Below are positions 37,457 through 61,624 of a stretch of DNA of 64,000 bases, piece after piece. A model generated the notes under the pieces. It saw only the letters and a list, made by a program, of their open reading frames with translations, had not been told where the DNA came from and made no database searches. Position 1 is the stretch's first letter. Each line of letters starts with the position of its first letter. The translations under genes were made by a program, and so were the position numbers. The stretch lies in assembly GCA_018830005.1 (NCBI GenBank), contig JAHJTE010000001.1:193332-257331 (forward strand). Reading direction: 5' to 3'. The stretch is from Candidatus Omnitrophota bacterium (GTDB taxonomy: Bacteria > Omnitrophota > Gorgyraeia > JAHJTE01).

Positions 37457-37479
37457 AAAATTTAAAGGGAGGTGAACAA

Positions 37480-38007: not shown

Positions 38008-38175
38008 ATAGTGCAACTTGATTATACATGTCTATCCGCTGTAGGTACAGATCAATACAGATTAATCCGCCTAGATCAATAAAGAGCTCTTACATCGCCT
38101 TCCTCATCCTAGCATCTATCTGTCGTTGATATAGAATGAGGTTACGGCAGATAGAGACTAATCAGTGAAAGAAAC

Positions 38176-42398: not shown

Positions 42399-44009
42399 AT
42401 GAATAGTAGGCGTTTACGTGTCGGCATAATATCACGAAAGAATTTAGGTTCATTAAACAGCCTAAGCTGTAGGGTGCTTTTTAAAAACGCCTTAAAGATC
42501 GTTGAGAGTAGATTCAATGCGTGCTGTTGCTTCCTGAATAGCTCTACTAACTCAAACAAGAAGGAGATAGCACTTAAGAAGCTTACCTCTTCTTGCGATG
42601 TGATTTTGGAATTAGCTCCAGGGCAAATGTTTGATATAAAGGCCAAATCAATACCTAGAGTCTTTTTTGCACTTGGTTTTATGTCAAATCCTTTCAATCT
42701 CATGGCTAGCTTTAACAGAAAACTCATGACAGCCAATTCCGTTCTTTTCTCATGCAAAGCGGATTTGGAAATGTTTAATAAAATATTTGGCAAGACAGGA
42801 CGCAGTATGGGCTATATTGTGCCTTTCCCTCTAGAAGTTAATGAATTCAAACCACAAAGTGAGCTTGAAAATAAACGCATGCGAGAAAGATTTGGTATTG
42901 GAGGAGATGTCTTTCTTATCTTGTATGCGGGAAGAATTAACGTGCAGAAGAATATACACACATTACTTAAGATATTTAGAGAGGCCATTAAGAGATTTCC
43001 GCAAACAAGACTTTGTATAGCCGGCGAAGAAGACAGGGGTGGCTTTGAAGAGTTTGGTATTAGTAATAATGGATATACCGGCTATATTAGGAGGAAATGC
43101 CTTGAATACGGGATTGCCGATAAAGTAATATTTACTGGAAAATTAAAAAGAGAAGACCTTATATCTTTATATTCAAGTGCTGATGTTTTCATGAATTGTA
43201 CTATCAGCCAGTATGAAAATTTTGGCTATTCCCAGGTTGAGGCTATGGCCTGCGGCACGCCGGTTATTTGTTCGCATTGGGGTGGATTGAAAGATACAGT
43301 TATTCATGGTAAGTGCGGTTATCATATGCCAACCATACTTAGCAATAACGGCGTAAAGGTTGACTGGCAAAGTGGCTTAAGGCAGTTGATAGGTCTCTTA
43401 GAAGATAAGGATAGACTCAAAGAAATGTCAAGACAGGCAAGAGAACACGCAAAGCTAAACTTCTCTTTCGATAGATTTGCTAAGATGTTAGAATTCGTAC
43501 TTTTAGATACAATGAAGCGCAATAATAAGAATAAAAAACACCACTATTTGCTAAAGATTAAAAAAGAAAATCCTCATTTTATGAATTTATTCATGGAGTA
43601 TCTGTATGTAAACCGTAAAAATTACAAGAAGGGGCCGGTCTGTGTGAATAGCCCCAAAAGCCTCTTCTTTAGGCGAAATTATAGTCACTATAAATCTTTT
43701 ATAAAAGCCTACAGTTCTCTATCTGGTTCTGAAATGCTTAAAAGAAATGGCTCCATACCCTACTTTCTACAGGATGTCAGACTTATGTATAAAGGGCAGC
43801 GCCTTTATATCCAAGATCCTCTCTGGCCAGCAAGATACAGATTAGAGGATTGGCAATTTAGAATTGCCTCAGTTATTGATGGCAATAGAAGCCTGGAGGA
43901 TATTAATTCTAATTTTATACACAGGGGTTTTAAAAAAAGGAGAGATTCGCTTAAGAGGTTCTATAAGCATCTTGCTGAAGAGGGCGTAGTATCATTTCTT
44001 AGTAATTAG
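42399..44009 (+). CDS. GT4-family (GT-B) glycosyltransferase with C-terminal PqqD/RRE-like domain
   Basis: GT4 C-domain 'FLILYAGRINVQKNIHTLL…CIAGEED…NFGYSQVEAMACGTPVICSHWGGL'; C-terminal ~70 aa 'RIASVIDGNRSLEDINSNF…SLKRFYKHLAEEGVVSFL' resembles PqqD. Confidence 0.6.
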   Translation: MNSRRLRVGIISRKNLGSLNSLSCRVLFKNALKIVESRFNACCCFLNSSTNSNKKEIALKKLTSSCDVILELAPGQMFDIKAKSIPRVFFALGFMSNPFNLMASFNRKLMTANSVLFSCKADLEMFNKIFGKTGRSMGYIVPFPLEVNEFKPQSELENKRMRERFGIGGDVFLILYAGRINVQKNIHTLLKIFREAIKRFPQTRLCIAGEEDRGGFEEFGISNNGYTGYIRRKCLEYGIADKVIFTGKLKREDLISLYSSADVFMNCTISQYENFGYSQVEAMACGTPVICSHWGGLKDTVIHGKCGYHMPTILSNNGVKVDWQSGLRQLIGLLEDKDRLKEMSRQAREHAKLNFSFDRFAKMLEFVLLDTMKRNNKNKKHHYLLKIKKENPHFMNLFMEYLYVNRKNYKKGPVCVNSPKSLFFRRNYSHYKSFIKAYSSLSGSEMLKRNGSIPYFLQDVRLMYKGQRLYIQDPLWPARYRLEDWQFRIASVIDGNRSLEDINSNFIHRGFKKRRDSLKRFYKHLAEEGVVSFLSN

Positions 44010-45155: not shown

Positions 45156-45290
45156 ATGATGAGAAAGGATTCCAAAAAAATTTCAAAGACAAGAAATGCT
45201 AAGGACAAATATGAGAAGCCAAAACTTTTCAAATACAGAATGGTAGATGTTGCCAGTGCTTTAGTAGCTGGACAGATAGAACCTTTATGA
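45156..45290 (+). CDS. Unannotated small ORF, 44 aa: MMRKDSKKISKTRNAKDKYEKPKLFKYRMVDVASALVAGQIEPL; candidate precursor peptide
   Basis: Not in the six-frame track (<60 aa). Strong SD 'AAAGGGGG' at 45145-45152; tandem ATGs at 45156 and 45159; lies in the 284-nt gap between rSAM #5 and the stand-alone PqqD gene; Lys-rich N-terminal half, hydrophobic small-residue C-terminal half. Confidence 0.45.
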   Translation: MMRKDSKKISKTRNAKDKYEKPKLFKYRMVDVASALVAGQIEPL

Positions 45291-45408
45291 ATAGAGCAGA
45301 TGTTTGCTTGATATCCTATGGCTTGAATTAGTTTTTCTAATGGGTAGATTATATATTTACTGAAGGAAAAATCTATCTGTTAACTAATAAATAAACTTGG
45401 AGGTAGAT

Positions 45409-45699
45409 ATGGCCTTAAGGGAAGGATGCAATCGTTTTAAAATCCAGAAGGATAAAATTGCCCACCGCTTAATTAATAATGAAGTGGTAATTTTGCATTT
45501 AGAGCGTGGTCTTTATTTCAGTCTTAATAAAACCGCTACTTTTATCTGGAAACTTATAGAGCAAGGCAGGGATTTAGGCCAGATGTCAGAGGCGTTCGCT
45601 AAAAGGTTTGAATGCAAAGAGGCAGAGGCAATAAAGGATGTCAATGTCTTAATAGGCGATTTAGAAAAAGAAGGACTCATAGATAAGATTAAGAAATAA
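45409..45699 (+). CDS. Stand-alone PqqD-family (RRE) protein; start at ATG 45409 with GGAGG at 45399-45403 (track ORF starts at an upstream TTG)
   Basis: 96 aa; 'INNEVVILHLERGLYFSLNKTATFIWKLIEQGRDLGQM…KDVNVLIGDLEKEGLI' typical PqqD. Confidence 0.75.
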   Translation: MALREGCNRFKIQKDKIAHRLINNEVVILHLERGLYFSLNKTATFIWKLIEQGRDLGQMSEAFAKRFECKEAEAIKDVNVLIGDLEKEGLIDKIKK

Positions 45700-45776: not shown

Positions 45777-46982
45777 ATGAATATTGCTATTATTGCTCAT
45801 TCCTATTTGCCTGATGTTGGTGGTAGCCAGGAAACAATCAGGGGATTAGCTAAAGAATTTTCAAAGCAAGCTCATGAAGTAATTATTTTGGTACTTACTC
45901 CTGGCCCAGGCGGAGAATTCAAGAATGCAACAGAAAACCATTTTTTTAGATTTAAGGCATTCGAGGTTATTGAGGGGATAGATGTTCATAGACTACGCGT
46001 TCCTTTTCTAGGAGTTCCCCGCATAGGAATAAAAGGACTGATTGACACCTTAAGACTCCTTGTTTTTTTACCGGGTGTATTAATAAAATCAGCCAAGATA
46101 ATAAAAGACAATAAGATTCAGATAATTAATGTCCATTATGCAGGCATAAATGCATTTTGTACTTGGCTGCTTTCCTACCCACTCTCCTTAAAATACATAG
46201 TTACATTGCAGGGTTTTAATGTGCAGGTACTCCCATTTTTAAAAGGTTTGAGAGGATTTATTATTCGTTTTGTTTTTAAGTCTATATTGCAGCGCGCCAG
46301 TTTTGTTACTGCCTGTTCTGAGTATCTACTTAATGATGCAAAAGAAAGAGTCCCCCAGATAAGAAATAAGTCTTGTGTTATCCCCAATGGCATAGATTTG
46401 GATGAGTTTAAGCATAACGGCCGAAGTTTAATAGATTATCCCTACATCCTTTGCCTGGGAAGACTGCATGCACCCTTTAAAGGTTTTGATATTGCCCTGC
46501 TTGCACTCAAGGATATCCTAGATTCAGGCCTTGATATAAATCTGGTTCTAGCCGGAGACGGGCCAGATAGCGCTGAATATAAAAAACTTGCAGAATCTTT
46601 AAGCATAGAGAAAAATGTGCATTTCTTTGGTCTGGCCAACCGCGTAGAGGCAGTATATTTTATTAAAAACTGCCAATTCTTTGTGATGCCTTCACGCGTT
46701 GAACCTCTAGGTATTGTAAACTTAGAGGCCATGGCCTGTTCTAAGGCAGTCATTGCCTCAAGAGTAGGCGGTATACCAGAGGTAGTTGAGCACGGTGTAA
46801 ATGGGTTATTAGTTGAGCCTGCGGATGTCAAGGTGCTTGCTAGAGCCATAAAAAGATTATTAGTTGATAAGGACTTAAGAGTTAAACTCGGCAGAAACGG
46901 CAGGCGCATGCTAGAGGCTGGAGAATTTTCTTGGCAGAGGCTATCTCGTAGATACCTAAAACTGTATAGAGAATTTTTATAA
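45777..46982 (+). CDS. GT4-family glycosyltransferase (paralog a)
   Basis: 'YLPDVGGSQE'; 'LGRLHAPFKGFDIALLAL…LVLAGDGP', 'FVMPSRVEPLGIVNLEAMACSKAVIASRVGGIPEVV'. Confidence 0.8.
   Translation: MNIAIIAHSYLPDVGGSQETIRGLAKEFSKQAHEVIILVLTPGPGGEFKNATENHFFRFKAFEVIEGIDVHRLRVPFLGVPRIGIKGLIDTLRLLVFLPGVLIKSAKIIKDNKIQIINVHYAGINAFCTWLLSYPLSLKYIVTLQGFNVQVLPFLKGLRGFIIRFVFKSILQRASFVTACSEYLLNDAKERVPQIRNKSCVIPNGIDLDEFKHNGRSLIDYPYILCLGRLHAPFKGFDIALLALKDILDSGLDINLVLAGDGPDSAEYKKLAESLSIEKNVHFFGLANRVEAVYFIKNCQFFVMPSRVEPLGIVNLEAMACSKAVIASRVGGIPEVVEHGVNGLLVEPADVKVLARAIKRLLVDKDLRVKLGRNGRRMLEAGEFSWQRLSRRYLKLYREFL
46268..46793 (+). repeat. Copy A of duplicated GT4 segments, >98% DNA identity with 48599-49124 at a constant 2331-bp offset; identical blocks 46268-46566 and 46668-46793 separated by diverged sequence
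   Basis: Direct comparison of both copies; only about 3 mismatches in the 299-bp block. Confidence 0.85.
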
Positions 46983-46985
46983 ATA

Positions 46986-48122
46986 ATGCAGAATAATTCC
47001 TTCGACTTTAATTTAGCTTCAAAGATAAAGAACAAAGAGGCAGGCATAAGAGATATACGCAATAGGAATGGAATATGTGAAGGCTTGCCTGCGGTTTTAA
47101 CCATCGTTGATACTACAAGATGTAATTTAGACTGCATAATGTGTGTAAGAAATAAAGGCTACTTACAAACTGCTTTAAGGTCTTTTAAGCGCTATAGTCG
47201 GCGTAGAGATGAGACTGTCATGAATTTTAATCTGTTTAAAAAAATAGCCAGCGAGATGTTTCCTCATATTAGCCGAGTTTGCTTAAGCGTAGCAGGGGAG
47301 CCTTTTATTAATCCAAATTTTCCTAGACAGCTAGAGCTAATTGAATCCTATAAGGTTTGGCTAGACCTCTTTACTAACGCTACTCTCATACCCAAGGATG
47401 AGCTTTTGAGGAGATTAGTTAATAGGCTATCGCGCATGGTAGTTTCTATTGATGGCGCCAGCAAGAAGACTTACGAGAGCATAAGAAAAGGAGCTAGATT
47501 CCAGGAGGTTATAGATAATATTAAGCGTCTTAATACAGAAAGAATGAAGATAGATAAAGAAATAAGGCCTAAGCTCGTCTTCTGGTTTGTATTGATGAGA
47601 AGGAATATCGAGGAATTGCCAGAATATGTGCGCTTAGCCCATAGCCTGGGGGCAGACGGGATAGGTGCGGCGCATGTTACTATATTCAAGAAAAGCTTAG
47701 AGAAAGAATCGTTGGTTTATCACAAACAGTTAGCCAACCGCTATTTAAAACAGGCAAGAGATTTAATTGACAAATTGGGCCTGGAGACTTTTGATTTTCC
47801 TCCTTTGTTTTCGCAGGTTCCTGTTTCGCAAGATAAAGTTGATACTCCAATGCCTAATTCGCCGTGCAAATTTCTCTGGAGAGAGGCGGTCATTGAATTA
47901 AATGGAGATGTTTATCCTTGTTGTGCTCCCGAGAAAACCGGTTTACTGATGGGAAATGTCAGCAAGCAATCTTTCAGAGAAATCTGGAGTGGTAAGCGCT
48001 ATCAGATATTAAGGGCAAGTTTTGAGGATGGCTATTTATATCCACCTTGCAAGAATTGTTATCAACGATTAAAAGATCGTACCTCAGATAACAGCGGTAT
48101 CTATTTTTTCGAAAACGTATAG
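46986..48122 (+). CDS. Radical SAM/SPASM-domain enzyme #6
   Basis: 'CNLDCIMC'; 'VAGEPF'; C-term 'CKFLWREAVIELNGDVYPCCAP…CKNCYQRL'. Confidence 0.75.
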   Translation: MQNNSFDFNLASKIKNKEAGIRDIRNRNGICEGLPAVLTIVDTTRCNLDCIMCVRNKGYLQTALRSFKRYSRRRDETVMNFNLFKKIASEMFPHISRVCLSVAGEPFINPNFPRQLELIESYKVWLDLFTNATLIPKDELLRRLVNRLSRMVVSIDGASKKTYESIRKGARFQEVIDNIKRLNTERMKIDKEIRPKLVFWFVLMRRNIEELPEYVRLAHSLGADGIGAAHVTIFKKSLEKESLVYHKQLANRYLKQARDLIDKLGLETFDFPPLFSQVPVSQDKVDTPMPNSPCKFLWREAVIELNGDVYPCCAPEKTGLLMGNVSKQSFREIWSGKRYQILRASFEDGYLYPPCKNCYQRLKDRTSDNSGIYFFENV

Positions 48123-48143: not shown

Positions 48144-49325
48144 ATGAATATAACAATTTTTCCTCATGCCTATTTGCCTAGCGTAGGGGGCGTAGAAGAG
48201 GTAGTCAGAAATCTAGCCAGAGAATTTAAGGCAAAAGGCCATCGTGTAGGACTAATAGTATTTGTTCCACTTAGAAGATTCAGGGCACGTGAGATTATTG
48301 AAGGAATAGAAGTTAGAAGATTCTATGTTCCCTTTGTAATATTGCCCTATAGAGTGAGCTGGCGAGCTTTTCTTGATGTAGTTGAAATGCTTGTTTGTTT
48401 GCCTCTTGCCCTGGTTAGAATAGCGCGCATACTCAAAGAAAATAATAGCCAAATAATACACATACATTATATTGGCGTAAATGCATTTTATATTTGGTTG
48501 CTTTCCTATTTTCTCTCCTTAAAATACATCGTAAGTTTGCACGGCTTTAATTTACAAGTAATACCTTTCCTGAAAGGCGCAAGCAGAGCTGTTCTTAATT
48601 TTGTTTTTAAGTCTATATTGCAGCGCGCCAGTTTTGTTACTGCCTGTTCTGAGTATCTACTTGATGATGCAAAAGAAAGAGTCCCCCAGATAAGAAATAA
48701 GTCTTGTGTTATCCCCAATGGCATAGATTTGGATGAGTTTAAGCATAACGGCCGCAGTTTAATAGATTATCCCTACATCCTTTGCCTGGGAAGACTGCAT
48801 GCACCCTTTAAAGGTTTTGATATTGCCCTGCTTGCACTCAAGGATATACTAGATTCAGGCCTTGATATAAATCTGGTTCTAGCCGGAGACGGGCCAGCCC
48901 GCACTTCTTATGAGAGATTGATAAGATTATTAAAGATAGAGAAAAATGTGCATTTATTTGGTTTGGCAAATAGAAAAGATGCAGTAAATTTAATCAGAAA
49001 CTGCCAATTCTTTGTGATGCCTTCACGCGTTGAACCTCTAGGTATTGTAAACTTAGAGGCCATGGCCTGTTCTAAGGCAGTCATTGCTTCCAGAGTAGGC
49101 GGTATACCAGAGGTAGTTGAGCATGGCCTAACCGGATTATTAGTTGAGTCATGCAGCGAGAAAGCACTGGCTGCAGCGATAAAGCGACTTATGGAAGATA
49201 AGAATTTAAGAATCAGACTTGGCAGAAACGGCAGGCTTAAGGCTGAGCAACGTGGATTTTCTTGGGAGTTTATAGCCGATAAACATCTGGAGATATCAAA
49301 AGGATTTTTGAATTATGAAGATTGA
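48144..49325 (+). CDS. GT4-family glycosyltransferase (paralog b; divergent N-terminal half, near-identical C-terminal half to paralog a)
   Basis: 'YLPSVGGVEEVV'; C-terminal half identical at protein level over 'FKSILQRASFVTACSEYLL…GIDLDEFKHNGRSLIDYPYILCLGRLHAPFKGFDIALLALKDILDSGLDINLVLAGDGP'. Confidence 0.8.
   Translation: MNITIFPHAYLPSVGGVEEVVRNLAREFKAKGHRVGLIVFVPLRRFRAREIIEGIEVRRFYVPFVILPYRVSWRAFLDVVEMLVCLPLALVRIARILKENNSQIIHIHYIGVNAFYIWLLSYFLSLKYIVSLHGFNLQVIPFLKGASRAVLNFVFKSILQRASFVTACSEYLLDDAKERVPQIRNKSCVIPNGIDLDEFKHNGRSLIDYPYILCLGRLHAPFKGFDIALLALKDILDSGLDINLVLAGDGPARTSYERLIRLLKIEKNVHLFGLANRKDAVNLIRNCQFFVMPSRVEPLGIVNLEAMACSKAVIASRVGGIPEVVEHGLTGLLVESCSEKALAAAIKRLMEDKNLRIRLGRNGRLKAEQRGFSWEFIADKHLEISKGFLNYED
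48599..49124 (+). repeat. Copy B of duplicated GT4 segments (see 46268-46793)
   Basis: Same as copy A; tandem duplication unit of 2331 bp comprising GT4 + rSAM. Confidence 0.85.
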
Positions 49326-50427
49326 CCCCTTTGATTATACAATAGGCTTAAAGATAAAAAATATAGAGGCGGCCTTAAGGGATAGGGAATTTCAAAATAG
49401 CACCTGTGAATCTTTCCCTGCATCTTTAACCATTGCAGATACTACAAGATGTAATCTAGACTGTATAATGTGTCATCACCATTTGGCCAAGACATATACA
49501 AAGTCTGCAAGCAATATTAATATGGATTTTAATCTATTTTCGAAGATTGCCAAAGAGACATTTCCCCATATTAACCTTGTTAGTTTAAGTGTATCTGGAG
49601 AACCTTTCATTAATCCAAATTTTTCTAAAGAGTTAGAGTTAATCGCTTTCCACAAGGTTAAGTTAGGTATTATTACTAACGCCACACTCATGCCAAAAGG
49701 CGATAGCCTAAGGAGACTTGTTAATAATCTCTCTAGTATAATTGTTTCTATTGATGCTGCTAGCAAGAAAACTTACGAGGCTATAAGAAAAGGCGCTAGA
49801 TTCCAACAGGTTATCGATAACGTCAAGCGGCTTAATAGGGCAAGACTAAAATTCAGTAAAAGTTTTAGACCCAAGCTTATCTTCTGGCTAGTTTTGATGA
49901 GGAAAAATATTGAAGAGTTATCAGAATATGTGCGCTTAGCTCATGCTCTTAAGGCAGACGGGATAGGACTGGTCCACATGTCAATACATCATGAGAAATT
50001 AAAAAAAGAATCATTGATTTACCACAAGCGATTGACGAATCGCTGCTTAAAGGCAGCAAGAAAGCTAATAGATAGTTTTGGCATTGAAGTCTATAATATT
50101 GCACCTTTGTTTTCTTTTGGTAGGACACCCATTAAAAAGAGCTATTATACTTTAAACAAGAGACCTTGTAAATTTCCTTGGCGGGAGGCATTTATTGAAG
50201 TAAATGGTGATGTTTATCCTTGTTGTGCTCCGGACAAAAGTGGTTTATTGATGGGTAATGTTAGAGAGCAGACGTTTAGACAGATTTGGAATGGCAGGCG
50301 CTATCGATTATTGCGAACCAGCTTTAAAAACGGCAATCTATTTGCTCCTTGCAAGAACTGTTACCAAAGATTAAAAGATTATACCTCAGATATCAGCGGT
50401 ATCTATTTCCCGCCGCCTATTGCATGA
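49315..50427 (+). CDS. Radical SAM/SPASM-domain enzyme #7 (paralog of #6, ~55-60% aa identity)
   Basis: Same 'TTRCNLDCIMC' block; 'VSGEPF'; 'CKFPWREAFIEVNGDVYPCCAP…CKNCYQRL'. Confidence 0.75.
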   Translation: MKIDPFDYTIGLKIKNIEAALRDREFQNSTCESFPASLTIADTTRCNLDCIMCHHHLAKTYTKSASNINMDFNLFSKIAKETFPHINLVSLSVSGEPFINPNFSKELELIAFHKVKLGIITNATLMPKGDSLRRLVNNLSSIIVSIDAASKKTYEAIRKGARFQQVIDNVKRLNRARLKFSKSFRPKLIFWLVLMRKNIEELSEYVRLAHALKADGIGLVHMSIHHEKLKKESLIYHKRLTNRCLKAARKLIDSFGIEVYNIAPLFSFGRTPIKKSYYTLNKRPCKFPWREAFIEVNGDVYPCCAPDKSGLLMGNVREQTFRQIWNGRRYRLLRTSFKNGNLFAPCKNCYQRLKDYTSDISGIYFPPPIA

Positions 50428-52205
50428 AAATGTCAGAACAAATCCACAAAGAACAAGTCGCTAAAGACCTCCTTTATGAATCTATAAAAGATGGCAGGAA
50501 GCGATCTCTAAAGGTAATAGGTAGTTGTATGCATCCAGTGATACAGCCAGGGGATGAAGTATTTTTTGGAAAAAGAGAGAAGTTTAGATTCGGTGATTTA
50601 GTGGTTTACAGGCAAAGTCAGGGCTTTATTGTCCATAGGTTTATTAGAAAGGCAAAGGTTAATAACAAACTAGTTTTTATATTAAAGGCAGATAATCCCT
50701 CTGAACTTGAGGAATTCATCGGGCAGGATGAGATTATCGGCGTAGTTACTAAACTGAGACGTAACGGCAGGATTTTAATTATTGATACATTTGCAGGCAG
50801 ACTTACGAGTTTATTTTATTTCTGTCTGGCTAATTTAAATCTTGCTCAAAGTAGGCTAAAACAAAGGCATGAGCTCTTAGCTATTAAGGCACTGCCTGCT
50901 AGATTAAAGAGTATAATTTCTACTAAAGTCTTCAACCTAAAAGACGTTTTTGCCTTTGGGATAGTAGAGACTGAGCAAGATTCATTTTTGAAAGAAAGGA
51001 AGACATTAAAACTAGTCGCTAAAGATTCGCTTTGTAAGGATGAGGAAACGCAATTAATAGATTTATTGAAAAATGGCCTTGATTGGCAATACGTCCTAGA
51101 GAGAATTAAATGGAATTTTATCATACCTTTTTATATTCAAAAGCTAAAGAGTTTCGGCTGGGAGGAAGATTTATATAGAAGGAATCACTGTTTAGATTTA
51201 GAGAATATCCATAGACTTCAGCTTATACAGGATACAAAAACTAGGCTTATTCTAGACGGGGTATTAGGGGAATTTAATAAACATGGTATTAAGGTGCTCG
51301 TACTTAAAGGAGCTCATTTAGGAATAGAGGTTTATGAGGACAGTTCCCAGCGCTGGATGGGAGATATTGATTTAATCTTGAGAATAGAAGATTGGTCTAA
51401 GGCATGCAAGATCTTAAATGATTTGGGTTTTGTGCTTGATTGGTTTTGTAAAGACTATAATATTTGGAGCATAAGATATCTAGATAATCATATTGACTTT
51501 CGCAAGCAAGGTATAAAATTAGAATTAAAAACAGGCATTTGGGCCATAGATTTTCCTTATTTCAATTATAGTCTTTGGCAAGATGCCAGATTAAAGAGGA
51601 TAGGAAAAGCAGATATATATTTTCCTTCCTATGAGGATACTCTTCTGATAGCCTGCGTTAATCTCGTTCGCCATAATTTCTCAGGATTAATCTGGTTCCT
51701 GGACACAAAAAAGATCGTTGATAAATTTAAAGACTCATTAGATTGGGATGTATTTTTAGATAAAGTCTCTAGATACGATTTAGGAACCGCAGTTTATTAC
51801 GGACTTTATTTAACTGATAAGTTATTTTCTTTAACATTACCCCCTGATTTGTTAGCTAAATTTAAGCCGCCTAGATTGGTGGATAAATTATTCAATTTCT
51901 TCTGGGATAGGAAAGCGATATTACTTGAAAAGGAAGGCCTTGTATTTAAGAACAAGGTGCCTTTTGAGTGCGCTTTTGTTTTATTCTGCGGCAAGTTTAG
52001 TTTTAGGCCTGAAAAATTTGTAAGATATGTAGTATATTTATTAAAGCTGATTTTTCCTCCCCAAGACTTTATCAGAGATAAATACAAGATTAAAGTCAAT
52101 CTAGTTAGCCTATCAAGATGTTATTTAGTTAGATTGTTTAGTTTTTTATCTACGTTGTTTAGTTTGCTCTTTGACTTATTTGCGGATAAAGACAGGCGAG
52201 CCTAA
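50424..52205 (+). CDS. Two-domain protein: N-terminal S24/S26 (LexA/signal-peptidase-like) Ser-Lys peptidase domain + C-terminal nucleotidyltransferase-family domain (PF14907-like); start at ATG 50424 (ATGA overlap with rSAM #7 stop)
   Basis: 'VIGSCMHPVIQPGDEVFF…GDLVVYRQSQGFIVHRFIRK' resembles the S26/S24 Ser…Lys fold; C-term 'LKGAHLGIEVYEDSSQRWMGDIDLILRIEDW' typical of the uncharacterised NTase family. Confidence 0.55.
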   Translation: MKMSEQIHKEQVAKDLLYESIKDGRKRSLKVIGSCMHPVIQPGDEVFFGKREKFRFGDLVVYRQSQGFIVHRFIRKAKVNNKLVFILKADNPSELEEFIGQDEIIGVVTKLRRNGRILIIDTFAGRLTSLFYFCLANLNLAQSRLKQRHELLAIKALPARLKSIISTKVFNLKDVFAFGIVETEQDSFLKERKTLKLVAKDSLCKDEETQLIDLLKNGLDWQYVLERIKWNFIIPFYIQKLKSFGWEEDLYRRNHCLDLENIHRLQLIQDTKTRLILDGVLGEFNKHGIKVLVLKGAHLGIEVYEDSSQRWMGDIDLILRIEDWSKACKILNDLGFVLDWFCKDYNIWSIRYLDNHIDFRKQGIKLELKTGIWAIDFPYFNYSLWQDARLKRIGKADIYFPSYEDTLLIACVNLVRHNFSGLIWFLDTKKIVDKFKDSLDWDVFLDKVSRYDLGTAVYYGLYLTDKLFSLTLPPDLLAKFKPPRLVDKLFNFFWDRKAILLEKEGLVFKNKVPFECAFVLFCGKFSFRPEKFVRYVVYLLKLIFPPQDFIRDKYKIKVNLVSLSRCYLVRLFSFLSTLFSLLFDLFADKDRRA

Positions 52206-52206
52206 T

Positions 52207-53127
52207 TTATAGCAATTTGCCTAGAAGCCTGGGGATTTCTCTAATCTGATCTAGGCTATAAGAAAGGGCATAGGATCTTGCCTGGTAGGCGAGTCGACAG
52301 AGATTCTGTATTTGGTGTTGGCGGATAATTATGTTTTTTTCCTCAGGAAGACTATTTACCTTATCATAGGCTAAAATAGTAAAACTTTCTTTTGTCTTCA
52401 ACTTTTTTAATTCAGGCGGCCGCAGGGGATTGTCAGATTGACAAATGAATAGTATTACGCCTAAGCATGCGCGTTCAGCCGGCTTAGCCGGGAAATACTC
52501 TTGTGCATAAAAAGAGGTAGCAATTTTTCTTCCTTCATTTAATGTAAGGAATTTTAGAGATTGTTTATCTAATTTCATTTTAAGAGGAAAGGAGAGTATT
52601 CTATCTTCGTGCAGGATAGCAAATTCATCTGAAAGAAAATTATAACCTTTATCTATAAGGGCTGCGGCTAAGGTGCTTTTGCCCATACCGGGACCGCCAC
52701 AGATAAGCAGGGCCTTATTCTTTTTAGATACTACTGCCGAATGTATTAAGGATATATTGTGATATGCCAATATTCGCCGTAAGGGCGAGATTATTGTTAA
52801 GTGCAGCAGGTTTTCTATTGTTAAACTGGAGGGGTAGAGCAGCTTGGCGTTGATTTTATTCTCTTTGGGATTGGCCTCAAGCGATATATTTTTTATCCAA
52901 CAATCAAGAGAAAAGTTCTCATCTTTTAGGCCAGCAACGTCAGAACGCCCATTTTTAAACGCCTTATTTTTAACAGAGAGATTTAGATCAATTTCTATAT
53001 ATTTGTTATAACTGCGGAATTTTGGAAATTTCAGTTCTTCGCAAAAGGCGTTAAACAGAGATTGGCAGTCAGACTTAAAATTTAATTTGATGTTATGTAG
53101 ATATATATTTTTTGAATAGGTTTGCAT
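52207..53127 (-). CDS. HprK-related P-loop kinase-like protein #2
   Basis: 'IHSAVVSKKNKALLICGGPGMGKSTLAAALIDKGYNFLSDEFAIL' parallels HprK/P C-domain; 306 aa. Confidence 0.6.
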   Translation of the reverse strand: MQTYSKNIYLHNIKLNFKSDCQSLFNAFCEELKFPKFRSYNKYIEIDLNLSVKNKAFKNGRSDVAGLKDENFSLDCWIKNISLEANPKENKINAKLLYPSSLTIENLLHLTIISPLRRILAYHNISLIHSAVVSKKNKALLICGGPGMGKSTLAAALIDKGYNFLSDEFAILHEDRILSFPLKMKLDKQSLKFLTLNEGRKIATSFYAQEYFPAKPAERACLGVILFICQSDNPLRPPELKKLKTKESFTILAYDKVNSLPEEKNIIIRQHQIQNLCRLAYQARSYALSYSLDQIREIPRLLGKLL

Positions 53128-53434
53128 AGCTTAAATTGGTAATTAATTTTAACTTTTTTAATTGCCGCAAGAGTGTTAAGTAATCAGCCCCTGCCTTTTT
53201 GTAGCTTGTTTTGTGTTTTTTCATTAGGCATTTTATAATTTTTTCCGGAGATTTTTTTAATAGAAGGCCTTCTAGTATATCAAGGGAGGATTTTGTAGTA
53301 AAATTAAGTGATTTTAGGATGTCGGCGAAAGAATATTTGCTTTCATCTATGACTACAAAGACAAATTCATTGCATAGTTTTGCCCAGACAATTTTTTCAT
53401 GTTTTAGCTCGTATCTCTTTTTTAGCTCGTCCAT
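53093..53434 (-). CDS. PqqD-family (RRE) protein
   Basis: 113 aa; 'IVWAKLCNEFVFVVIDESKYSFADILKSLNFTTKSSLDILEGLLLK…' PqqD-like; overlaps downstream kinase gene by 35 nt. Confidence 0.6.
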   Translation of the reverse strand: MDELKKRYELKHEKIVWAKLCNEFVFVVIDESKYSFADILKSLNFTTKSSLDILEGLLLKKSPEKIIKCLMKKHKTSYKKAGADYLTLLRQLKKLKLITNLSYANLFKKYIST

Positions 53435-53513
53435 TTTTACACCCCTGTTGATAGCTAAATATTAACACAGTCAAAACCATAGGTCAATTGTTTAAGAAAT
53501 TTAGCAAAAGATT

Positions 53514-55286
53514 ATGTTTGATTCAGGCATAAACCAAGACAGGCTTAAATTAAAAGATGTAAAAGAAGGATTTAGGTTTTTTCTTCGTTTCAATAAATAT
53601 ATATTACGTTACTGGAAGATACAGCTGCCCATTCTGATTATAGGAAATGCAACAATGATGCTGGGTCTTGTTAATCCTTATATCGGGAAATTGATATTGG
53701 ATAAGGGCATCCTCGCCAGAAATTTTAATGTATTTATTCTCTTTACCATTATCTCTGTAACGATCTTTTTCATTTCTATTCTTTCAAACATTGCCTATGA
53801 TTATTTGAAAAATTATGCACTGGTTAATATTTCTATTGATCTTAATCGGGATGTATTTAGGAGGCTAAAAAAATATTCCTTGAGCCAATTGCAGATGAGC
53901 TCAACCGGTGTGCGTATCTTTCGTATAGTCAATGATATCGGCAATGCCTCCGAGGTTATCAATGTTACACTTGTACACATTATAAATTCAATTATTAAGA
54001 TGATTTTTATAACCGCTATCATAATATTTATTAACCCTCTTTTTTTGTTGATTATTATTGTTTATCAGTTTTTGGTTATTATCAGGATGAGATTTTTTGT
54101 TAAGTCTTTTGAGGAATTGAAAAAGATGAAGTTAAAAGCCGTTGAGAGGCTTTTTCATAGTCTTAATAATTTCTTCTCACATCTTTATCTTAGTAAGACC
54201 TTCGGCACCATGGGTAGGGAGATAGGAAGGTATATGCATAGCTTCTTTGAGCATATAAGGTTGCACATGAGAGGCGTACGTTTGGGGGCGATTGCTGGAT
54301 TTATATCCAGCATTTCTGATAAATTCTTCTTTGGGGCCTTAGCTTTTTACGGAGCATATCTTGTGATAAAGGGCGAGATAACCTTGGGCACAATGGGTGC
54401 GATGCTTGCCTATATTAGTCAGGGAGTAGGGGCATATACAGAGCTTACTAGTTTGTGCGAAAAACTGGTGTTTAACAAGATTTCTTTAGAGAGGGTAGCA
54501 AAGGTATTGGATGAACCACTTCCTGAAAATCTTCCTCAGAGAGGTGGAGTTAGGCCGCAAGATTTAAGGAGGATTGAATTTAGGCAGGTGAGTTTTGGAT
54601 ATCAAGCCAATAAAGAAATAATAAAAGGTTTAAATTTTAGTATCGAGGCTGGGTCTCATATTGGCCTGGTTGGCCATTCTGGTTGCGGCAAGACAACGCT
54701 GCTTAGCCTTATTTTAGGGCTTTATCCTGTTGAGAACGGTAAGATATTATTGGCTGATAGCCAGCTAGAGGCAATAGATTCTGCCTATCTTCTTTACAAT
54801 ATTGGCATAGTTTTGCAGGAGCCGTTTCTTTTTGATGACACTATCGCTTATAATATTTCCTATGCCTTAAATGAGGCTAGAGATAAAGATATTATTGAAG
54901 CAGCGAGGCTTTCTGATATCTATAGTTTCGTTAATTCTCTGCCTAAAAAATTTGATACAACTGTGGGAGAGAATGCCTACAGGCTTTCTCAAGGCCAAAA
55001 GCAGCGGATTGCTATCGCGCGTGCATTAATAAAAAGGCCGCAAATTTTAATTTTAGATGAAGCGATGTCTTCTCTTGATTCAGAAACAGAAAGCAAGATA
55101 ATCGCTAATATAAAAAACAAATTTTCCGATTCTACGATTATCTTGGTATCGCATAGATTGTCAGCTGTAAAGACAATGGATACAATTTATTATTTTAAAG
55201 GGCCGCATATTATGCACATAGGCTCGCATGATAAATTACTTGATGAGCTCTCTGATTATAGAGAATTCTTTAGAGAACAGATTTAA
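53514..55286 (+). CDS. ABC transporter, fused permease/ATPase exporter (no C39 peptidase domain)
   Basis: 6-TM N-domain; Walker A 'GHSGCGKTTL', signature 'LSQGQKQRIAIARAL', Walker B 'ILILDEA'. Confidence 0.85.
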   Translation: MFDSGINQDRLKLKDVKEGFRFFLRFNKYILRYWKIQLPILIIGNATMMLGLVNPYIGKLILDKGILARNFNVFILFTIISVTIFFISILSNIAYDYLKNYALVNISIDLNRDVFRRLKKYSLSQLQMSSTGVRIFRIVNDIGNASEVINVTLVHIINSIIKMIFITAIIIFINPLFLLIIIVYQFLVIIRMRFFVKSFEELKKMKLKAVERLFHSLNNFFSHLYLSKTFGTMGREIGRYMHSFFEHIRLHMRGVRLGAIAGFISSISDKFFFGALAFYGAYLVIKGEITLGTMGAMLAYISQGVGAYTELTSLCEKLVFNKISLERVAKVLDEPLPENLPQRGGVRPQDLRRIEFRQVSFGYQANKEIIKGLNFSIEAGSHIGLVGHSGCGKTTLLSLILGLYPVENGKILLADSQLEAIDSAYLLYNIGIVLQEPFLFDDTIAYNISYALNEARDKDIIEAARLSDIYSFVNSLPKKFDTTVGENAYRLSQGQKQRIAIARALIKRPQILILDEAMSSLDSETESKIIANIKNKFSDSTIILVSHRLSAVKTMDTIYYFKGPHIMHIGSHDKLLDELSDYREFFREQI

Positions 55287-55304: not shown

Positions 55305-56102
55305 ATGAAAATACGCTTATACATCGGATTATTACTTTTGAAAATTACCGAAACGTTCAATCTCATGGGCAGGATATTTAAAAATATTTTACTAGTAGTT
55401 CTCCTGCCTCAGGATCTAAGCAGCCTTAATAAATTAGCTTATAATAATAAGGGTAATCTAAATGCGCTCTCAAGTTTGGCAACGCGAGGGCTAAATGAAG
55501 GAGAGAAGGAATTAATTTCTAAATATTGTCTTAAGCCGGGTAAGTTTCTAGTCTTAGGCTGCGGTGCAGGCAGGGAAACTTATGCATTGGCAAAGATGGG
55601 TTTTGTTGTTACGGGTATTGATTTCGTAGAGACCTTGTTAGGAAAGGCAAGAGCTGTAGCAGAAGAAGAACAGTTGAGGATAGAATACATTAATAAAGAT
55701 ATTCTTTTATGGGCCGAGGAAGAGAGAAAAGAAAAATACGATTATATCCTTGTTTCAAATAATGTCTATCTGCAGATTCCTTCAAAAAAAATACGGATTA
55801 ATTTTCTTAATAGGGCGCTTAATAAATTATCTGATGATGGCCTTTTTATTGTAATTAATAACTGCATATCTGATCTTAAATACTCTAAAATTCAGTTTAA
55901 ATTAAAAAGGCTCTTGGCAAGAATCATGTTCGCAAATGTCGGAATAGAAGCAGGCGACTGGATACCAATTCGTCAATTCTTTCACCGGCCGCAAAATAAG
56001 AATGAATTTTTAACTGAATTTCAAGATAGCGAAGCCTTAATCTATGAGGTTAGAGAAGATAAGAATCTTATTTCGGTTTTGCTAAAACATTCAAATGGAT
56101 AA
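55305..56102 (+). CDS. Class I SAM-dependent methyltransferase
   Basis: Motif I 'FLVLGCGAGRETYAL', motif II 'YDYILVSNNV'. Confidence 0.7.
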   Translation: MKIRLYIGLLLLKITETFNLMGRIFKNILLVVLLPQDLSSLNKLAYNNKGNLNALSSLATRGLNEGEKELISKYCLKPGKFLVLGCGAGRETYALAKMGFVVTGIDFVETLLGKARAVAEEEQLRIEYINKDILLWAEEERKEKYDYILVSNNVYLQIPSKKIRINFLNRALNKLSDDGLFIVINNCISDLKYSKIQFKLKRLLARIMFANVGIEAGDWIPIRQFFHRPQNKNEFLTEFQDSEALIYEVREDKNLISVLLKHSNG

Positions 56103-58347
56103 GAAGTTAAAAGAAGACATTGAAGTTAATGAGAGAGGGCTAGAGGTCCCTTGTCAGGATAGCAAGCTTTCACAACTATGCTGTGAGTATTCTGATTTAC
56201 TGCCCTGTTGTAATGCCCTTATCCCAAGGGGAAAACGTTTTAGGGACCGGGCTAAAATATTATGGGGTAAGGTGAGTTTTCTAGACCTTTTTGAACTAAA
56301 GAAGGAACTTCTAAAAACAGATTATTTTAAATTTAAAACAACAAGTTGGTGCATGTTTCCAGTCTTAAAAAAAGGCGATACGTTAAAGATTGAATCTTGT
56401 AGTTTGAATGATTTAAAAATAGGTGAAATACCAGTTTATCGTAGAAATAATAGATTATATTCACATCGAATTGTGGATAAGCATATTCTAGAAGGAAAGG
56501 AGCGGATAATAACAAGACCAGATACAGCTAAGGTCAGGAAGGGCCTCTTGCAAGAAGAGCTAGAAGAGGAGGATTTATTAGGCAAAGTAAGGGAAGTAGA
56601 AAGAGACAAAAAGAGATTTCCTCTAGAAAAAAGGGAAGCTAATTTTTGGGAGAAATTCTTATACACCAGACATAAACTCTCCTTGGCTTTATTGAAATTA
56701 TTGTCTCGTGTTTCTATGAAAACTTTAACATGCATTCAATCTCTTTGGATTTATAGATGGTTAGGAAAAAAGCTAATTAAAAGATTGGAACCCAATATAG
56801 ATTTCCAACTCGCCACACCCTCAAGGCACAAGTTAGAAATATATGAATATACACCATTAGAAAAAAGAGATAATTTTCGACCAAGAGAATATAAAAATTT
56901 TCATATTATTATGAAATCAAAAGATACGCCTATAGGATGCATTACATTCTTGAACAGAGATAAGAATTGTCCATATACAGGTTTTTGGTTAGCTGAGCTG
57001 TGGATCAGGCTTAGATATAGAGGGCTGGGCCTGGAGTCGTTTTTAGTCAACAGAGCGCAAGATTTTTTAAGAGAACGCGACCTAGAGCACATTTCTTATC
57101 CAAGGCCTCCTGTTGTGCTAAAGCGTTCTTTTTTGAGGGCTCCGCTTTATTTTAACAGCCAGGAGTTATTGATTGTTTTATCCAAGGATAAAACAGATGA
57201 AGATCTGACTAAGAGGGCACTTAGCCTTATCAGGGCCGGAATTGATTGGGATGTATTTTACAAGTTAGTTATAGCCAGTGGCAAACCCGCGGCTATAATG
57301 AAACATATAAAGTTTTTAAGTGGTCTTGAGGCGGTTGGTCATTCTGCAATTGACAGATTAAAGGGAGCCTTCTTTGATACGATTGACTCTACTACACGAA
57401 ATCACAGGCAGTTATTGGATATACTCAAGGAGTTCTCAAAAGCAAAAATTAGCGTTATTCCTTTAAAAGGTACATATTTATCCCAAAGACTCTACGGAGA
57501 TATCTCACTGCGAGGAAAGAATCTAGATATTGATTTGTTGATAAAAGAGCAGGATATAGAGAGGGCAACGGCTTTATTGAAAGGATTAGGCTATAAAGAA
57601 AGACCAGAAGAAGAAATTAGCATCTGGCGTTGGCAGAAGACATTCTCTAAAGAAGGTTTTGCCTTTCTAGAGTTACAGTGGGATATTACAATGATGCTTA
57701 GAGACAGCCAGAGGATAGAAGGGTTATGGCAAAGCGCTGATAATGTCAAGATTCATTTAGAAGGAGTAGACTTGAATATTTGTCAATGGGACAATGAAGC
57801 GCTCCTTCTTTATCTTTGCGTAACTTTAATTAATAGTAGTGGTTATAGAGATTTAAGATATTTCTTTGATATTTTTCAATTGCTAGAGAACACAAGCACA
57901 TCTTTTGACTGGGGTGCTTTTATTAAAAAGGCTAGAAGATACAAGATTAATAATTCTGTATTTGCCAGCTTGCTAAAAGCAAATGAAATCCTGAATGCAA
58001 AAGTTCCCAAGCCTGTGTTAGAGGAGTTAAAGCCGTCTTTCTTAAAAGGAATATTAATACGTATTTTCTTAAGCCGGAGTGTGATATTTACTGATAATCT
58101 AAGAAGAAGGTTTATGGATAATTTTTTAAGTTATATCTTTTTTGAGCTGCTTGAGGCAAATTCAGCTAGAGATTACCTAAGGATCGTAAAAAGAGTAATG
58201 TTTCCGCCTCGGGAGCTTCTAGAGATTCGCTTTGATAATCCAGCTTCGGCAAGAATTAGTATTTCCTCAAATTGGCAATATTCTCTCTGCGTCCTAAAGA
58301 GGCTTTGTAAGTCTTTCAGTCTCATAGGGAGAATTCTTGTAAGATAA
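56095..58347 (+). CDS. Three-domain protein: Cys-rich N-terminal segment + S24/S26-like peptidase + GNAT-like acetyltransferase + nucleotidyltransferase-family (PF14907-like) domain
   Basis: 'PCQDSKLSQLCCEYSDLLPCCNAL'; 'TTSWCMFPVLKKGDTLKI…YSHRIVDK' (S26-like); 'RLRYRGLGLESFLVNRA' (GNAT motif A-like); C-terminal 'GKNLDIDLLIKEQD' NTase-like; 8-nt overlap with MTase gene. Confidence 0.5.
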   Translation: MDKKLKEDIEVNERGLEVPCQDSKLSQLCCEYSDLLPCCNALIPRGKRFRDRAKILWGKVSFLDLFELKKELLKTDYFKFKTTSWCMFPVLKKGDTLKIESCSLNDLKIGEIPVYRRNNRLYSHRIVDKHILEGKERIITRPDTAKVRKGLLQEELEEEDLLGKVREVERDKKRFPLEKREANFWEKFLYTRHKLSLALLKLLSRVSMKTLTCIQSLWIYRWLGKKLIKRLEPNIDFQLATPSRHKLEIYEYTPLEKRDNFRPREYKNFHIIMKSKDTPIGCITFLNRDKNCPYTGFWLAELWIRLRYRGLGLESFLVNRAQDFLRERDLEHISYPRPPVVLKRSFLRAPLYFNSQELLIVLSKDKTDEDLTKRALSLIRAGIDWDVFYKLVIASGKPAAIMKHIKFLSGLEAVGHSAIDRLKGAFFDTIDSTTRNHRQLLDILKEFSKAKISVIPLKGTYLSQRLYGDISLRGKNLDIDLLIKEQDIERATALLKGLGYKERPEEEISIWRWQKTFSKEGFAFLELQWDITMMLRDSQRIEGLWQSADNVKIHLEGVDLNICQWDNEALLLYLCVTLINSSGYRDLRYFFDIFQLLENTSTSFDWGAFIKKARRYKINNSVFASLLKANEILNAKVPKPVLEELKPSFLKGILIRIFLSRSVIFTDNLRRRFMDNFLSYIFFELLEANSARDYLRIVKRVMFPPRELLEIRFDNPASARISISSNWQYSLCVLKRLCKSFSLIGRILVR

Positions 58348-58500: not shown

Positions 58501-58549
58501 AGTGTAAGTATATTCAGGCCATTGAATATAAGTGAGGCTAGGAGCGCTA

Positions 58550-59395
58550 ATGTATACAGAATATTGGTCAATTAAAGACAAGCCGTTTGAAAATACTCCT
58601 GACCCGCGTTTTATCTACTATTCCTCTAAACACGAAGAGGCATTAAGCCGTATGCTTTATTGCATTAGAGAGAAGAAGGGTGCGGGTATGCTTACAGGAG
58701 ATTATGGCTCAGGTAAAACTCTTCTTTCTCGAGTTTTACTTAAAGAGTTGAAGACGGAAAGATATACCGATGTATTAATTTTTAATCCAGTCCTAAGCCC
58801 TATTGAATTTTTGAAAGAGATAGCCTATCAGTTGGGCCAGGATTCTGTTCCGGATAATAAGGTGGATATTATTCACGTTCTAAACGGTCTTCTTTATGAA
58901 AATTACACTAAGGGTAAAGATACAATAATTTTGATTGATGAGGCACAGACAATTGTAAGTGATGAGGTGTTTGAGGAATTACGTCTTATATTGAATTTTC
59001 AGCTTAATAACGCCTTTTTATTGACGCTGATTCTTATTGGACAGCCAGAGTTGGTTAAAAAGATAAATAAGATACCCCAACTAAGTCAACGCATAGCAAT
59101 AAGGTATTTTCTCTCTAGTCTTGAGGAAACAGAGACATATGAATATATAAAGCATAGGTTAAACGTTGTCGGAAGAGAAAAGAATATATTTGACGAGTCT
59201 GCCTTAAGGTTAATTTTTAGGGTCTCACGCGGGATACCGCGGGTCGTCAATAATATCTGTGATATGTCGTTGTTGGTTGGTTTTGGCGCAAAGAAAGAAT
59301 TGATTGATGAGGTAGTTGTGCGCGAAGTCATCAGAGATATGGAGGATGGCCACAGTAAAGAGGCAAACCCCACTCCTTTACATCGATTGTATTAG
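58550..59395 (+). CDS. ExeA-like AAA ATPase (general secretion pathway protein A / PEP-CTERM-locus-type ATPase); start at MYTEYW with SD TAGGAG
   Basis: 'FIYYSSKHEEALSRMLYCIREKKGAGMLTGDYGSGKTLL', Walker B 'ILIDEAQ'. Confidence 0.75.
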   Translation: MYTEYWSIKDKPFENTPDPRFIYYSSKHEEALSRMLYCIREKKGAGMLTGDYGSGKTLLSRVLLKELKTERYTDVLIFNPVLSPIEFLKEIAYQLGQDSVPDNKVDIIHVLNGLLYENYTKGKDTIILIDEAQTIVSDEVFEELRLILNFQLNNAFLLTLILIGQPELVKKINKIPQLSQRIAIRYFLSSLEETETYEYIKHRLNVVGREKNIFDESALRLIFRVSRGIPRVVNNICDMSLLVGFGAKKELIDEVVVREVIRDMEDGHSKEANPTPLHRLY

Positions 59396-59427
59396 AACAT
59401 TAGCTAACCCAGGATAAGACGAAGCTT

Positions 59428-60564: not shown

Positions 60565-60566
60565 TT

Positions 60567-61613: not shown

Positions 61614-61624
61614 GTTAAAAGTTT

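Follow-up and report, generated by a model that had tools for sequence, protein, structure and literature searches.

A PqqD-like, HprK-like kinase, and peptidase-nucleotidyltransferase cassette in an Omnitrophota radical SAM island as a candidate leader-dependent peptide-tailoring module

The subject of this report is a three-gene cassette located at positions 50424-53434 of a 64,000-nucleotide stretch of DNA from a Candidatus Omnitrophota bacterium, hereafter referred to as the window. The cassette encodes a small PqqD-like protein, an HprK-like kinase (kinase #1), and a nucleotidyltransferase (NTase) of the NTP_transf_5 family fused to a signal-peptidase-like domain. Gene identities, intact catalytic motifs, folds, and conserved synteny were established directly. 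With moderate confidence we propose that the cassette serves as a leader-dependent peptide-tailoring module of a pathway resembling those for peptides that are synthesized ribosomally and modified post-translationally (RiPPs), and we infer its enzymatic steps. The proposal is based on the conservation of the triad and an adjacent ATP-binding cassette (ABC) exporter in seven loci, and on a natural fusion of PqqD and HprK-like domains (P0007, 400 aa). It draws further on the BsfK-type motif spacing of the kinase, its PEPCK/HprK-type fold, and the precedents set by the kinase, B1, and nucleotidyltransferase (K/B1/N) accessory proteins of lasso peptide pathways. Finally, open reading frames (ORFs) with conserved leaders and variable cores adjoin a lasso-B1-like RiPP recognition element (RRE) in six loci, and a Cys-rich peptide is carried on a PqqD domain.

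The ORF map reproduces the coordinates assigned to the three genes in an initial annotation of this DNA. On the minus strand lie the gene for the PqqD-like protein, a divergent RRE-type peptide chaperone of 113 aa (53093-53434), and that for kinase #1 (52207-53127), a 306-aa P-loop protein of the ScmC/HprK_rel_A superfamily that contains LICGGPGMGKSTLAAALIDKG. The two genes overlap, as had been claimed, and do so by 35 nt (53093-53127); the start of the kinase is backed by the N-termini of its orthologues, which align as M..YSK.IYLHNIK. The plus-strand gene for the Sec11/S26B-type peptidase-NTase fusion (50424-52205, 593 aa) has its likely start at 50424, where its ATG and the stop codon of the upstream radical S-adenosylmethionine (rSAM) gene overlap as ATGA, and it ends at 52205. 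Its stop codon is separated from that of the kinase gene by a single nucleotide (taa-t-tta), in keeping with the earlier statement that the minus-strand pair converges on the NTase gene. The accompanying description of the cassette as "divergently arranged" applies only with respect to the ABC exporter gene at 53514; relative to the NTase gene the pair is convergent. The exporter (53514-55286, plus strand) is a half-transporter with transmembrane and nucleotide-binding domains (PF00664 and PF00005) and without a peptidase domain. Its best NCBIfam matches are of the HlyB/MsbA/NHLM type, all below cut-off. The divergent intergenic region between the PqqD-like and exporter genes measures 79 bp (53435-53513). 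A ribosome-binding site, AGGGG, precedes the ATG of the PqqD-like gene, and sigma-70-like sites are found on the minus strand at 53487-53459 (TTGACC-17-TAATAT with TG) and on the plus strand at 53436-53463. The number of promoter-like hexamers in the gap is not above shuffled expectation, and the sites are suggestive only.

The gene order and orientation of the cassette recur in six further Omnitrophota loci from different samples (L001, L003, L004, L008, L009, and L010), and its linkage is thus more than a matter of chance. In the shared layout an rSAM/SPASM gene is followed by the (S26)-NTP_transf_5 gene, the inverted HprK-like and PqqD-like genes, the ABC exporter gene, a second NTP_transf_5 gene, and usually exopolysaccharide (EPS)-export genes. 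The position of the ABC exporter is kept in all related loci. Across the loci the kinases are 41-54% and the PqqD-like proteins 30-51% identical. The initial annotation had tied its proposal to linkage with PqqD or NTase genes in other genomes, and such linkage is found in L001, L003, L008, L009, and L010. Throughout the loci, 1-11 nt separate the stop codons of the kinase and NTase genes, too little to accommodate terminators between the convergent genes. In the window they occupy 52203-52209, and the NTase/kinase stop positions elsewhere are 10936/10938 (L001), 10909/10921 (L003), 3871/3877 (L004), 5286/5294 (L008), 10653/10663 (L009), and 11653/11664 (L010). Note that the inversion is conserved in the window-type loci and that the genes of the canonical triads in two other loci, L005 and L006, all run in one direction. 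The kinase has few close homologues. A word-indexed search of 5.8 billion proteins yielded six, and an exhaustive HMMER search gave 8 cluster representatives below 1e-30 as compared to 10,376 below 1e-3. A scan of 185k GTDB species genomes with the kinase clade alignment returned one locus, that of the L003 metagenome-assembled genome (MAG), and a scan of JGI metagenomes also returned one, identical with L002.

Kinase #1 finds its best NCBIfam match in TIGR04352, HprK-related kinase A, with a score of 61.2 bits (cut-off 200) that covers aa 123-182 only. The scores against PF07475 (22 bits, cut-off 33.3) and against TIGR00679, the model for true HPr kinase/phosphorylase (HprK/P), are lower still; the latter amounts to 23.6 bits for kinase #1 and 19.2 bits for a second HprK-like protein in the window (HprK-like #2), with a cut-off of 240. 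The Hpr_kinase_N domain was not found in either protein by Pfam or NCBIfam scans. A bona fide HprK/P identity, which the initial annotation had recognized as the alternative that would undercut its proposal, is thereby ruled out. PF27840, "ScmC", is assigned to a database protein 96% identical to kinase #1 (P0001), which comes from a Candidatus Omnitrophota MAG. In an alignment of kinase #1 with its six orthologues, two canonical HprK_rel_A proteins, and HprK-like #2, residues H129, G149, K150, T152, S166, and D167 are invariant, and it is on these residues that the best solved structures matched by the kinase profile, the HPr kinases 3tqf and 1ko7, are aligned. The AlphaFold (AF2) model of kinase #1 (mean confidence, pLDDT, 84.5) was compared with known structures by Foldseek. 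The matches to PEPCK (E 4e-9, TM about 0.6, both domains) and to HprK/P 3tqf (E 3e-6) indicate a predicted fold of the PEPCK/HprK type.

The similarity to lasso peptide kinases extends to the spacing of the catalytic residues. In BsfK the motif H148-G163-G166-G168-K169-S170-D186-D187 has been validated by mutagenesis (PMC10368454). When the corresponding pattern, H-x14-G-x2-G-x-G-K-S-x15-D-D, was tested on kinase #1, its spacing was reproduced by H129-G144-G147-G149-K150-S151-D167-E168, with the last Asp replaced by Glu. The likeness to PadeK, PsmK, and BsfK, and that of the NTase to PsmN discussed below, is based on the published motif and published structural neighbours. More distant HprK-like relatives (P0067, P0131, P0149, and P0167) are fused to GT2 glycosyltransferases.

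The PqqD identity of the minus-strand ORF at 53434-53093, as assigned in the initial annotation, is not apparent from its own score, which at 15.1 bits (E 0.029) lies below the PF05402 gathering cut-off of 23.4. Its sole NCBIfam match is to NF033530, lasso_PqqD (E 0.0095), and TIGR04353 (cut-off 35 bits) gave no match at E<=0.01. A homologue search with the 113-aa protein returned only a 95% twin. The assignment depends on the orthologues and on profiles. All six orthologues hit PF05402 (best E 9.7e-11), and in hhalign a three-sequence profile aligned with the PqqD profile over the C-terminal 62 aa with a probability of 95.8%. The best PDB matches of a six-sequence profile are the lasso B1 proteins TbiB1 (5v1u, E 0.007) and TfuB1 (6jx3, E 0.009). 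As judged from these comparisons, the ORF is probably a divergent PqqD/RRE. That it might be a chance ORF is ruled out by its conservation in six loci. PqqD/RRE domains are known to bind peptide leaders (PMC7470986).

The third protein was correctly recognized as an NTase in the initial annotation (PF14907, 137.8 bits versus a gathering cut-off of 31.2, aa 219-468), and its motif, K295-G296 ... D314-x-D316, is intact; what was missed is the N-terminal Sec11-type signal-peptidase domain. This region, aa ~25-120, displays a presumed nucleophile, Cys35 (50526-50528), together with His71-Arg72 and Asp90. It scores 26.6 bits against PF00717 (Peptidase_S24) and 38 bits against TIGR02228, archaeal-type signal peptidase I (cut-off 51.85). 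A PDB search with the single sequence of the domain gave no match, and human SEC11A (7p2p, E 1e-10) emerged only with a seven-sequence profile, in which the SGSMEP, HR, and GDN segments are aligned. In addition to the SMxP, HR, and (G/A)DN boxes, the domain shares the LexA/signal peptidase fold with the Sec11/archaeal-type enzymes (MEROPS S26B). Further kin may be named among the soluble maturation proteases of the S26 family, e.g. the Ni-SOD protease (TIGR02754). It differs from the S26B enzymes, apart from its sub-threshold score, in being fused to an NTase, in lacking an N-terminal transmembrane segment or membrane anchor, and in having a Cys nucleophile, as do about half of its homologues. 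The nucleophile position is occupied by Ser in 11 and by Cys in 12 of 23 sequences, with Cys in both window paralogues, and the His-Arg pair, the Asp, and the NTase KG...DxD motif (KG, DIDL) are invariant in all 23. Since only Ser and Cys interchange while the His and Asp stay invariant, the pattern argues for a working nucleophile. In the AF2 model of the fusion (pLDDT 80) the Foldseek neighbours of the N-terminal part are LexA, SipA, and SEC11C, and those of the NTase part are ANT(2'')-Ia, LnuA, and TM1012, the same as those reported for the lasso enzyme PsmN (PMC6993621). A literature search on PF14907, NTP_transf_5, and HPr-rel-A produced one unrelated mention, in a phosphonate cluster.

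The closest characterized enzymes are the lasso peptide accessory proteins, which include the kinases PadeK, PsmK, and BsfK, the RRE protein B1, and the nucleotidyltransferases PsmN and BsfN (PMC8498205, PMC6993621, PMC10368454). BsfK phosphorylates its own precursor, and the RRE BsfB1 strongly enhances the reaction (PMC10368454). PsmK phosphorylates the C-terminal Ser, and PsmN, which models on ANT(2''), places one or two hexoses on the phosphate (PMC6993621). Certain lasso clusters encode an NTase joined to the B2 leader peptidase (PMC8498205), in parallel to the fusion in the window, although the window peptidase is of the S26B type and non-homologous. The resemblance of the window to this accessory set comprises the catalytic motif and spacing of the kinase, an RRE whose nearest solved structures are lasso B1 proteins, the ANT(2'')-like neighbours of the NTase, an ABC half-transporter, and a candidate precursor with a YxxPxL leader. 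The suggestion in the initial annotation that the kinase acts on a peptide delivered by PqqD gains support from the lasso precedent, in particular from BsfK acting with BsfB1 (PMC10368454), and its description of the system as one of unknown function needs qualification in that related lasso enzymes have already been characterized.

The best candidate for a precursor is a 44-aa ORF on the plus strand (45156-45290) preceded by the ribosome-binding site AAGGGGG. Its putative leader, ...KYEKPKLFKY, precedes a variable C-terminal core. In five other loci a homologous small ORF is found at the equivalent position 5' of a PqqD gene, giving six in total (L001 16809-16949, L003 16529-16645, L004 8327-8521, L009 4953-5096, and L010 ~5982-6122). 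The leader pattern Y-x-K-P-x-L-x-K-Y is invariant among them and the cores are variable. In lasso precursors the leader motif is YxxPxL (PMC10368454). Directly 3' of the candidate precursor lies a strong PqqD/RRE gene (45397-45699, plus strand) that scores 63.7 bits on PF05402 and 42.9 bits on lasso_PqqD NF033530 (cut-off 70). A second candidate precursor family is represented by the plus-strand gene at 37480-38007, the product of which combines a PqqD domain (PF05402 44.7 bits, aa 44-95) with a tail of ~80 aa whose end is a Cys-rich peptide. A standalone 65-aa ORF in L009 (165-362), ...IRLNPEQALTICFCYNTG..., is a homologue of this tail, ...KVKLQPEQAVLSCCTINGG..., and, judging by sequence, the 37480-38007 protein resembles a fusion of an RRE with a precursor that would serve the adjacent rSAM/SPASM and ScmC-like genes. 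The Cys-rich peptide itself reads …KLQPEQAVLSCCTINGG…CAGLCPIDASC….

In the mechanism that we envisage, the small PqqD-like protein would bind the leader of a ribosomal precursor, for which the 44-aa ORF is the best candidate, and present it to the HprK-like kinase, which with NTP/Mg2+ would phosphorylate a Ser or Thr hydroxyl of the core. The NTP_transf_5 domain might then put a hexose or another nucleotide-activated group on the phosphate, as PsmN does. The leader would be cut off by the fused, anchorless Sec11-type peptidase domain with its Ser or Cys nucleophile, His, and Asp, and the product would be exported by the adjacent ABC half-transporter. Other modifications may be installed by the rSAM/SPASM and family 4 glycosyltransferase (GT4) enzymes of the surrounding island.

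The window is not a complete lasso cluster. Neither a lasso cyclase (Asn-synthetase homologue) nor a B2 transglutaminase-type protease was found among the annotated ORFs between 33.4 and 58.3 kb or in the Pfam lists of L001, L003, L004, L008, L009, and L010, and on these grounds that classification was ruled out. In further distinction from lasso clusters, the candidate cores appear to lack the N-terminal Gly and Asp/Glu pattern, and the main maturases of the island are rSAM/SPASM and GT4 enzymes.

The initial annotation likened the cassette to the computationally defined HPr-rel-A system, in which a TIGR04352 kinase and a TIGR04353 peptide chaperone occur with an adjacent PF14907 NTase. That triad does exist as described. 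The canonical example in L005 encodes a kinase scoring 322 bits on TIGR04352 (cut-off 200), followed by NTP_transf_5, and a small ORF overlapping the kinase gene has its best match to TIGR04353, "HPr-rel-A system PqqD family peptide chaperone" (30.5 bits); L006 encodes NTP_transf_5, PqqD, and a 194-bit TIGR04352 kinase. The L005 triad adjoins a PEP-CTERM-domain protein and polysaccharide-synthesis genes. Just 5' of the canonical triads are genes for twin-arginine-like RRxF(L/F) proteins (L005 492-1229 and L006 7448-7654), which are possible substrates or unrelated neighbours. The same three components are present in the window, with the PqqD-like gene directly 5' of, and overlapping, the kinase gene, and the NTase gene abutting the kinase stop. 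The window kinase, however, scores 61 rather than 200 bits, its PqqD-like partner lacks a TIGR04353 match, the pair runs opposite to the NTase gene, the NTase carries the additional S26B-like peptidase domain, and the whole is embedded in an rSAM/SPASM-GT4 island.

A second relative is the SynChlorMet system (ScmC, ScmD, and ScmE/ScmF; TIGR04248-04251; PF27840), in which an HprK-like protein of the ScmC family likewise occurs with a PqqD-like protein and paired rSAM/SPASM enzymes. The likeness is strongest at 36374-42389, the region that includes HprK-like #2 (39282-40193, plus strand, 303 aa), located between rSAM/SPASM genes. The initial annotation had placed an HprK-like gene there, and both the family matches (TIGR04355 35 bits, TIGR04352 29 bits, PF07475 19.5 bits) and the motif H155 ... 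GAGKT ... SDD agree with it. The L001 orthologue matches ScmC (TIGR04249 34.5 bits; PF27840). Against the ScmC equivalog (cut-off 125) kinase #1 scores 23.8 bits and HprK-like #2 has no match; ScmD scores are 20-25 bits (cut-off 100) and ScmE/ScmF scores are 50-89 bits (cut-off 400 each), those for ScmE being 74-89. The equivalog scores are thus far below cut-off, and the window island is much larger and contains GT4s and NTases. With HprK/P (TIGR00679; PF07475 and PF02603) the window kinase shares a P-loop, His, and Asp catalytic core and a PEPCK-like fold, but not the N-terminal domain, an HPr partner, or the genomic context. The cassette is probably evolutionarily related to the lasso K/B1/N accessory genes and to the HPr-rel-A triad. 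Because the thresholds for TIGR04352, TIGR04353, the Scm models, TIGR00679, and TIGR02228 are all failed and a lasso cyclase is absent, it should, on its sequence scores, be filed as HPr-rel-A-like and ScmC-family and not as a member of any equivalog.

Several observations weigh against a peptide-tailoring role. Kinase #1 and the PqqD-like protein fall below all curated family cut-offs, and the small PqqD-like ORF is absent from one locus, L004, in which the other PqqD gene of the island is kept. The candidate precursor is encoded 7 kb away from the triad, beside a different RRE, and the candidate cores have no conserved Ser/Thr position. A signal peptidase-type A-x-A site 12 residues past the Leu of YxxPxL, the spacing at which lasso leaders are cleaved, occurs in the window peptide only (VASA|L); it is inconsistent in the other five peptides and was set aside as coincidence or weak evidence. 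In addition, the island adjoins EPS-export genes and HprK-like domains occur fused to GT2 enzymes, which would allow a glycan-type substrate. The main rival explanation is built on this last point. According to it, the cassette serves EPS or glycoconjugate assembly as part of the adjacent EPS locus: the substrate of the kinase would be a sugar, a glycan linked to a lipid, or a protein of the PEP-CTERM type, the NTase would add a phospho-linked group, and the PqqD-like protein would act only as an adaptor. The island is located directly 5' of genes for a TIGR03015-like ATPase, HD-GYP, Wza, and Wzc, and similar neighbours are found in L003, L008, and L009; the surroundings of the L005 triad and the GT4 genes of the island point in the same direction. 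On the other hand, the established partners of PqqD/RRE domains are peptide leaders (PMC7470986), and the three PqqD-like genes, the two families of small ORFs with conserved leaders and variable cores, and the many SPASM maturases suggest peptide substrates. The NTase-fused peptidase domain, moreover, has no obvious role on a glycan. We consider this explanation unlikely, and it could be compatible with peptide tailoring if the peptide product were tied to EPS.

Two other roles are less likely. The low scores of the kinase and peptidase domains against all curated models, and the Cys that replaces, in the window peptidase domains, the Ser of S26 enzymes, would fit a picture in which the HprK-like and/or S26-like domains are pseudoenzymes, that is, non-catalytic scaffolds organising a maturase complex. 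Yet complete catalytic motifs have been kept across orthologues that are only 41-54% identical, and the nucleophile position admits only Ser or Cys in 23 sequences, such that a non-catalytic role appears highly improbable. Least probable is that the HprK-like protein is a regulatory HprK/P-like kinase/phosphorylase that targets a signalling protein and controls the island's expression. It would explain the separate, opposite-strand transcription of the PqqD-like/kinase pair, which is inverted relative to the otherwise unidirectional island in seven of seven loci and has its own promoter-like region, and the superfamily is indeed common to HprK/P. The TIGR00679 score and the missing N-terminal HprK domain speak against it, as does the lack of an HPr-like gene among the annotated ORFs, and the constant RRE and NTase partners and the PqqD-kinase fusion are unlike HprK/P.

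If the peptide-tailoring role is correct, the consequences reach beyond the window. An orphan of computational origin so far, the HPr-rel-A triad is tied by the window locus to the characterized lasso kinase, B1, and NTase enzymes. Because the motif, the fold, the RRE relatives, and the leader motif all provide links to lasso systems, RRE-guided phosphorylation and phosphate-linked decoration become a testable chemistry. A lasso-type tailoring set of leader, RRE, kinase, and NTase would thus occur outside lasso biosynthesis, in an rSAM/GT4 island of an uncultured phylum. An anchorless, NTase-fused Sec11-type peptidase with a nucleophile toggling between Ser and Cys would represent a new type of leader peptidase, and, as an independent second case of a peptidase-NTase fusion, would suggest a mechanistic coupling between removal of the leader and decoration of the phosphate. 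The points most worthy of note are this fusion, the lasso-type parts without a cyclase, and the conserved Omnitrophota rSAM-GT4 island beside EPS export. Only tentatively can it be put forward that the entire 25-kb island belongs to an undescribed RiPP class. Such a class would be defined by a YxxPxL leader and lasso-B1-like RREs without a cyclase, by cross-linking or modification by rSAM/SPASM enzymes, by glycosylation by GT4s, which some loci encode as fusions with rSAM/SPASM, by phospho-decoration by the HprK-like and NTP_transf_5 proteins, by a cytosolic, NTase-fused Sec11-type Ser/Cys leader peptidase of a new kind, and by coupling to EPS export.

The cassette is indeed embedded in an rSAM/SPASM island, as first reported. 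The island extends from 33.4 to 58.3 kb and contains seven rSAM/SPASM genes (36374, 38176, 40190, 41268, 44034, 46986, and 49315) and one B12-rSAM gene (33403), in addition to three GT4, three PqqD-like, and two NTP_transf_5 genes, one methyltransferase gene, and the ABC exporter gene. It is preceded by housekeeping genes, e.g. those for purine synthesis and serine hydroxymethyltransferase (SHMT). On its 3' side (58532-63541) are genes for the TIGR03015-like ATPase of the XrtA/PEP-CTERM type (230 bits, cut-off 324), HD-GYP, Wza, and a Wzc-like chain-length/tyrosine kinase. EPS-export genes also adjoin the island in L003 (1-3465), L008 (10243-14286), and L009 (15666-19653).

Downstream of the exporter gene, at 55305-56102 on the plus strand, lies the gene for an S-adenosylmethionine-dependent methyltransferase (Methyltransf_25/31 matches), a homologue of which occurs in L003 and is missing from some of the loci. 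It is followed by the second S26-like/NTP_transf_5 gene (56095-58347, plus strand), the 750-aa product of which matches PF14907 (134 bits), PF00583 (26 bits), and TIGR02228 (30 bits) and has the motif SWCMFP with a Cys nucleophile. Its architecture consists of a Cys-rich N-terminus (…EVPCQDSKLSQLCCEYSDLLPCC…) followed by S26-like, GNAT acetyltransferase, and NTP_transf_5 regions. A second NTP_transf_5 gene is likewise located 3' of the ABC gene in L001, L003, L008, L009, and L010; in the other loci its product measures ~565-578 aa and lacks a GNAT match.

The GT4 and rSAM/SPASM genes of the island show further features. One pair is tandemly duplicated (45777-48122 versus 48144-50427); the copies are spaced ~2.3 kb apart and are 74-83% identical in nucleotide sequence along long stretches. 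The GT4 and rSAM/SPASM are joined in a single protein of ~775 aa in L009 and L010. The GT4 encoded at 42399-44009 has a conserved C-terminal extension, its last ~100 aa, that by eye resembles an RRE (W…IDGNRSLEDI…EEGVV), and the hhalign probability for this similarity is weak, at 12-16%.

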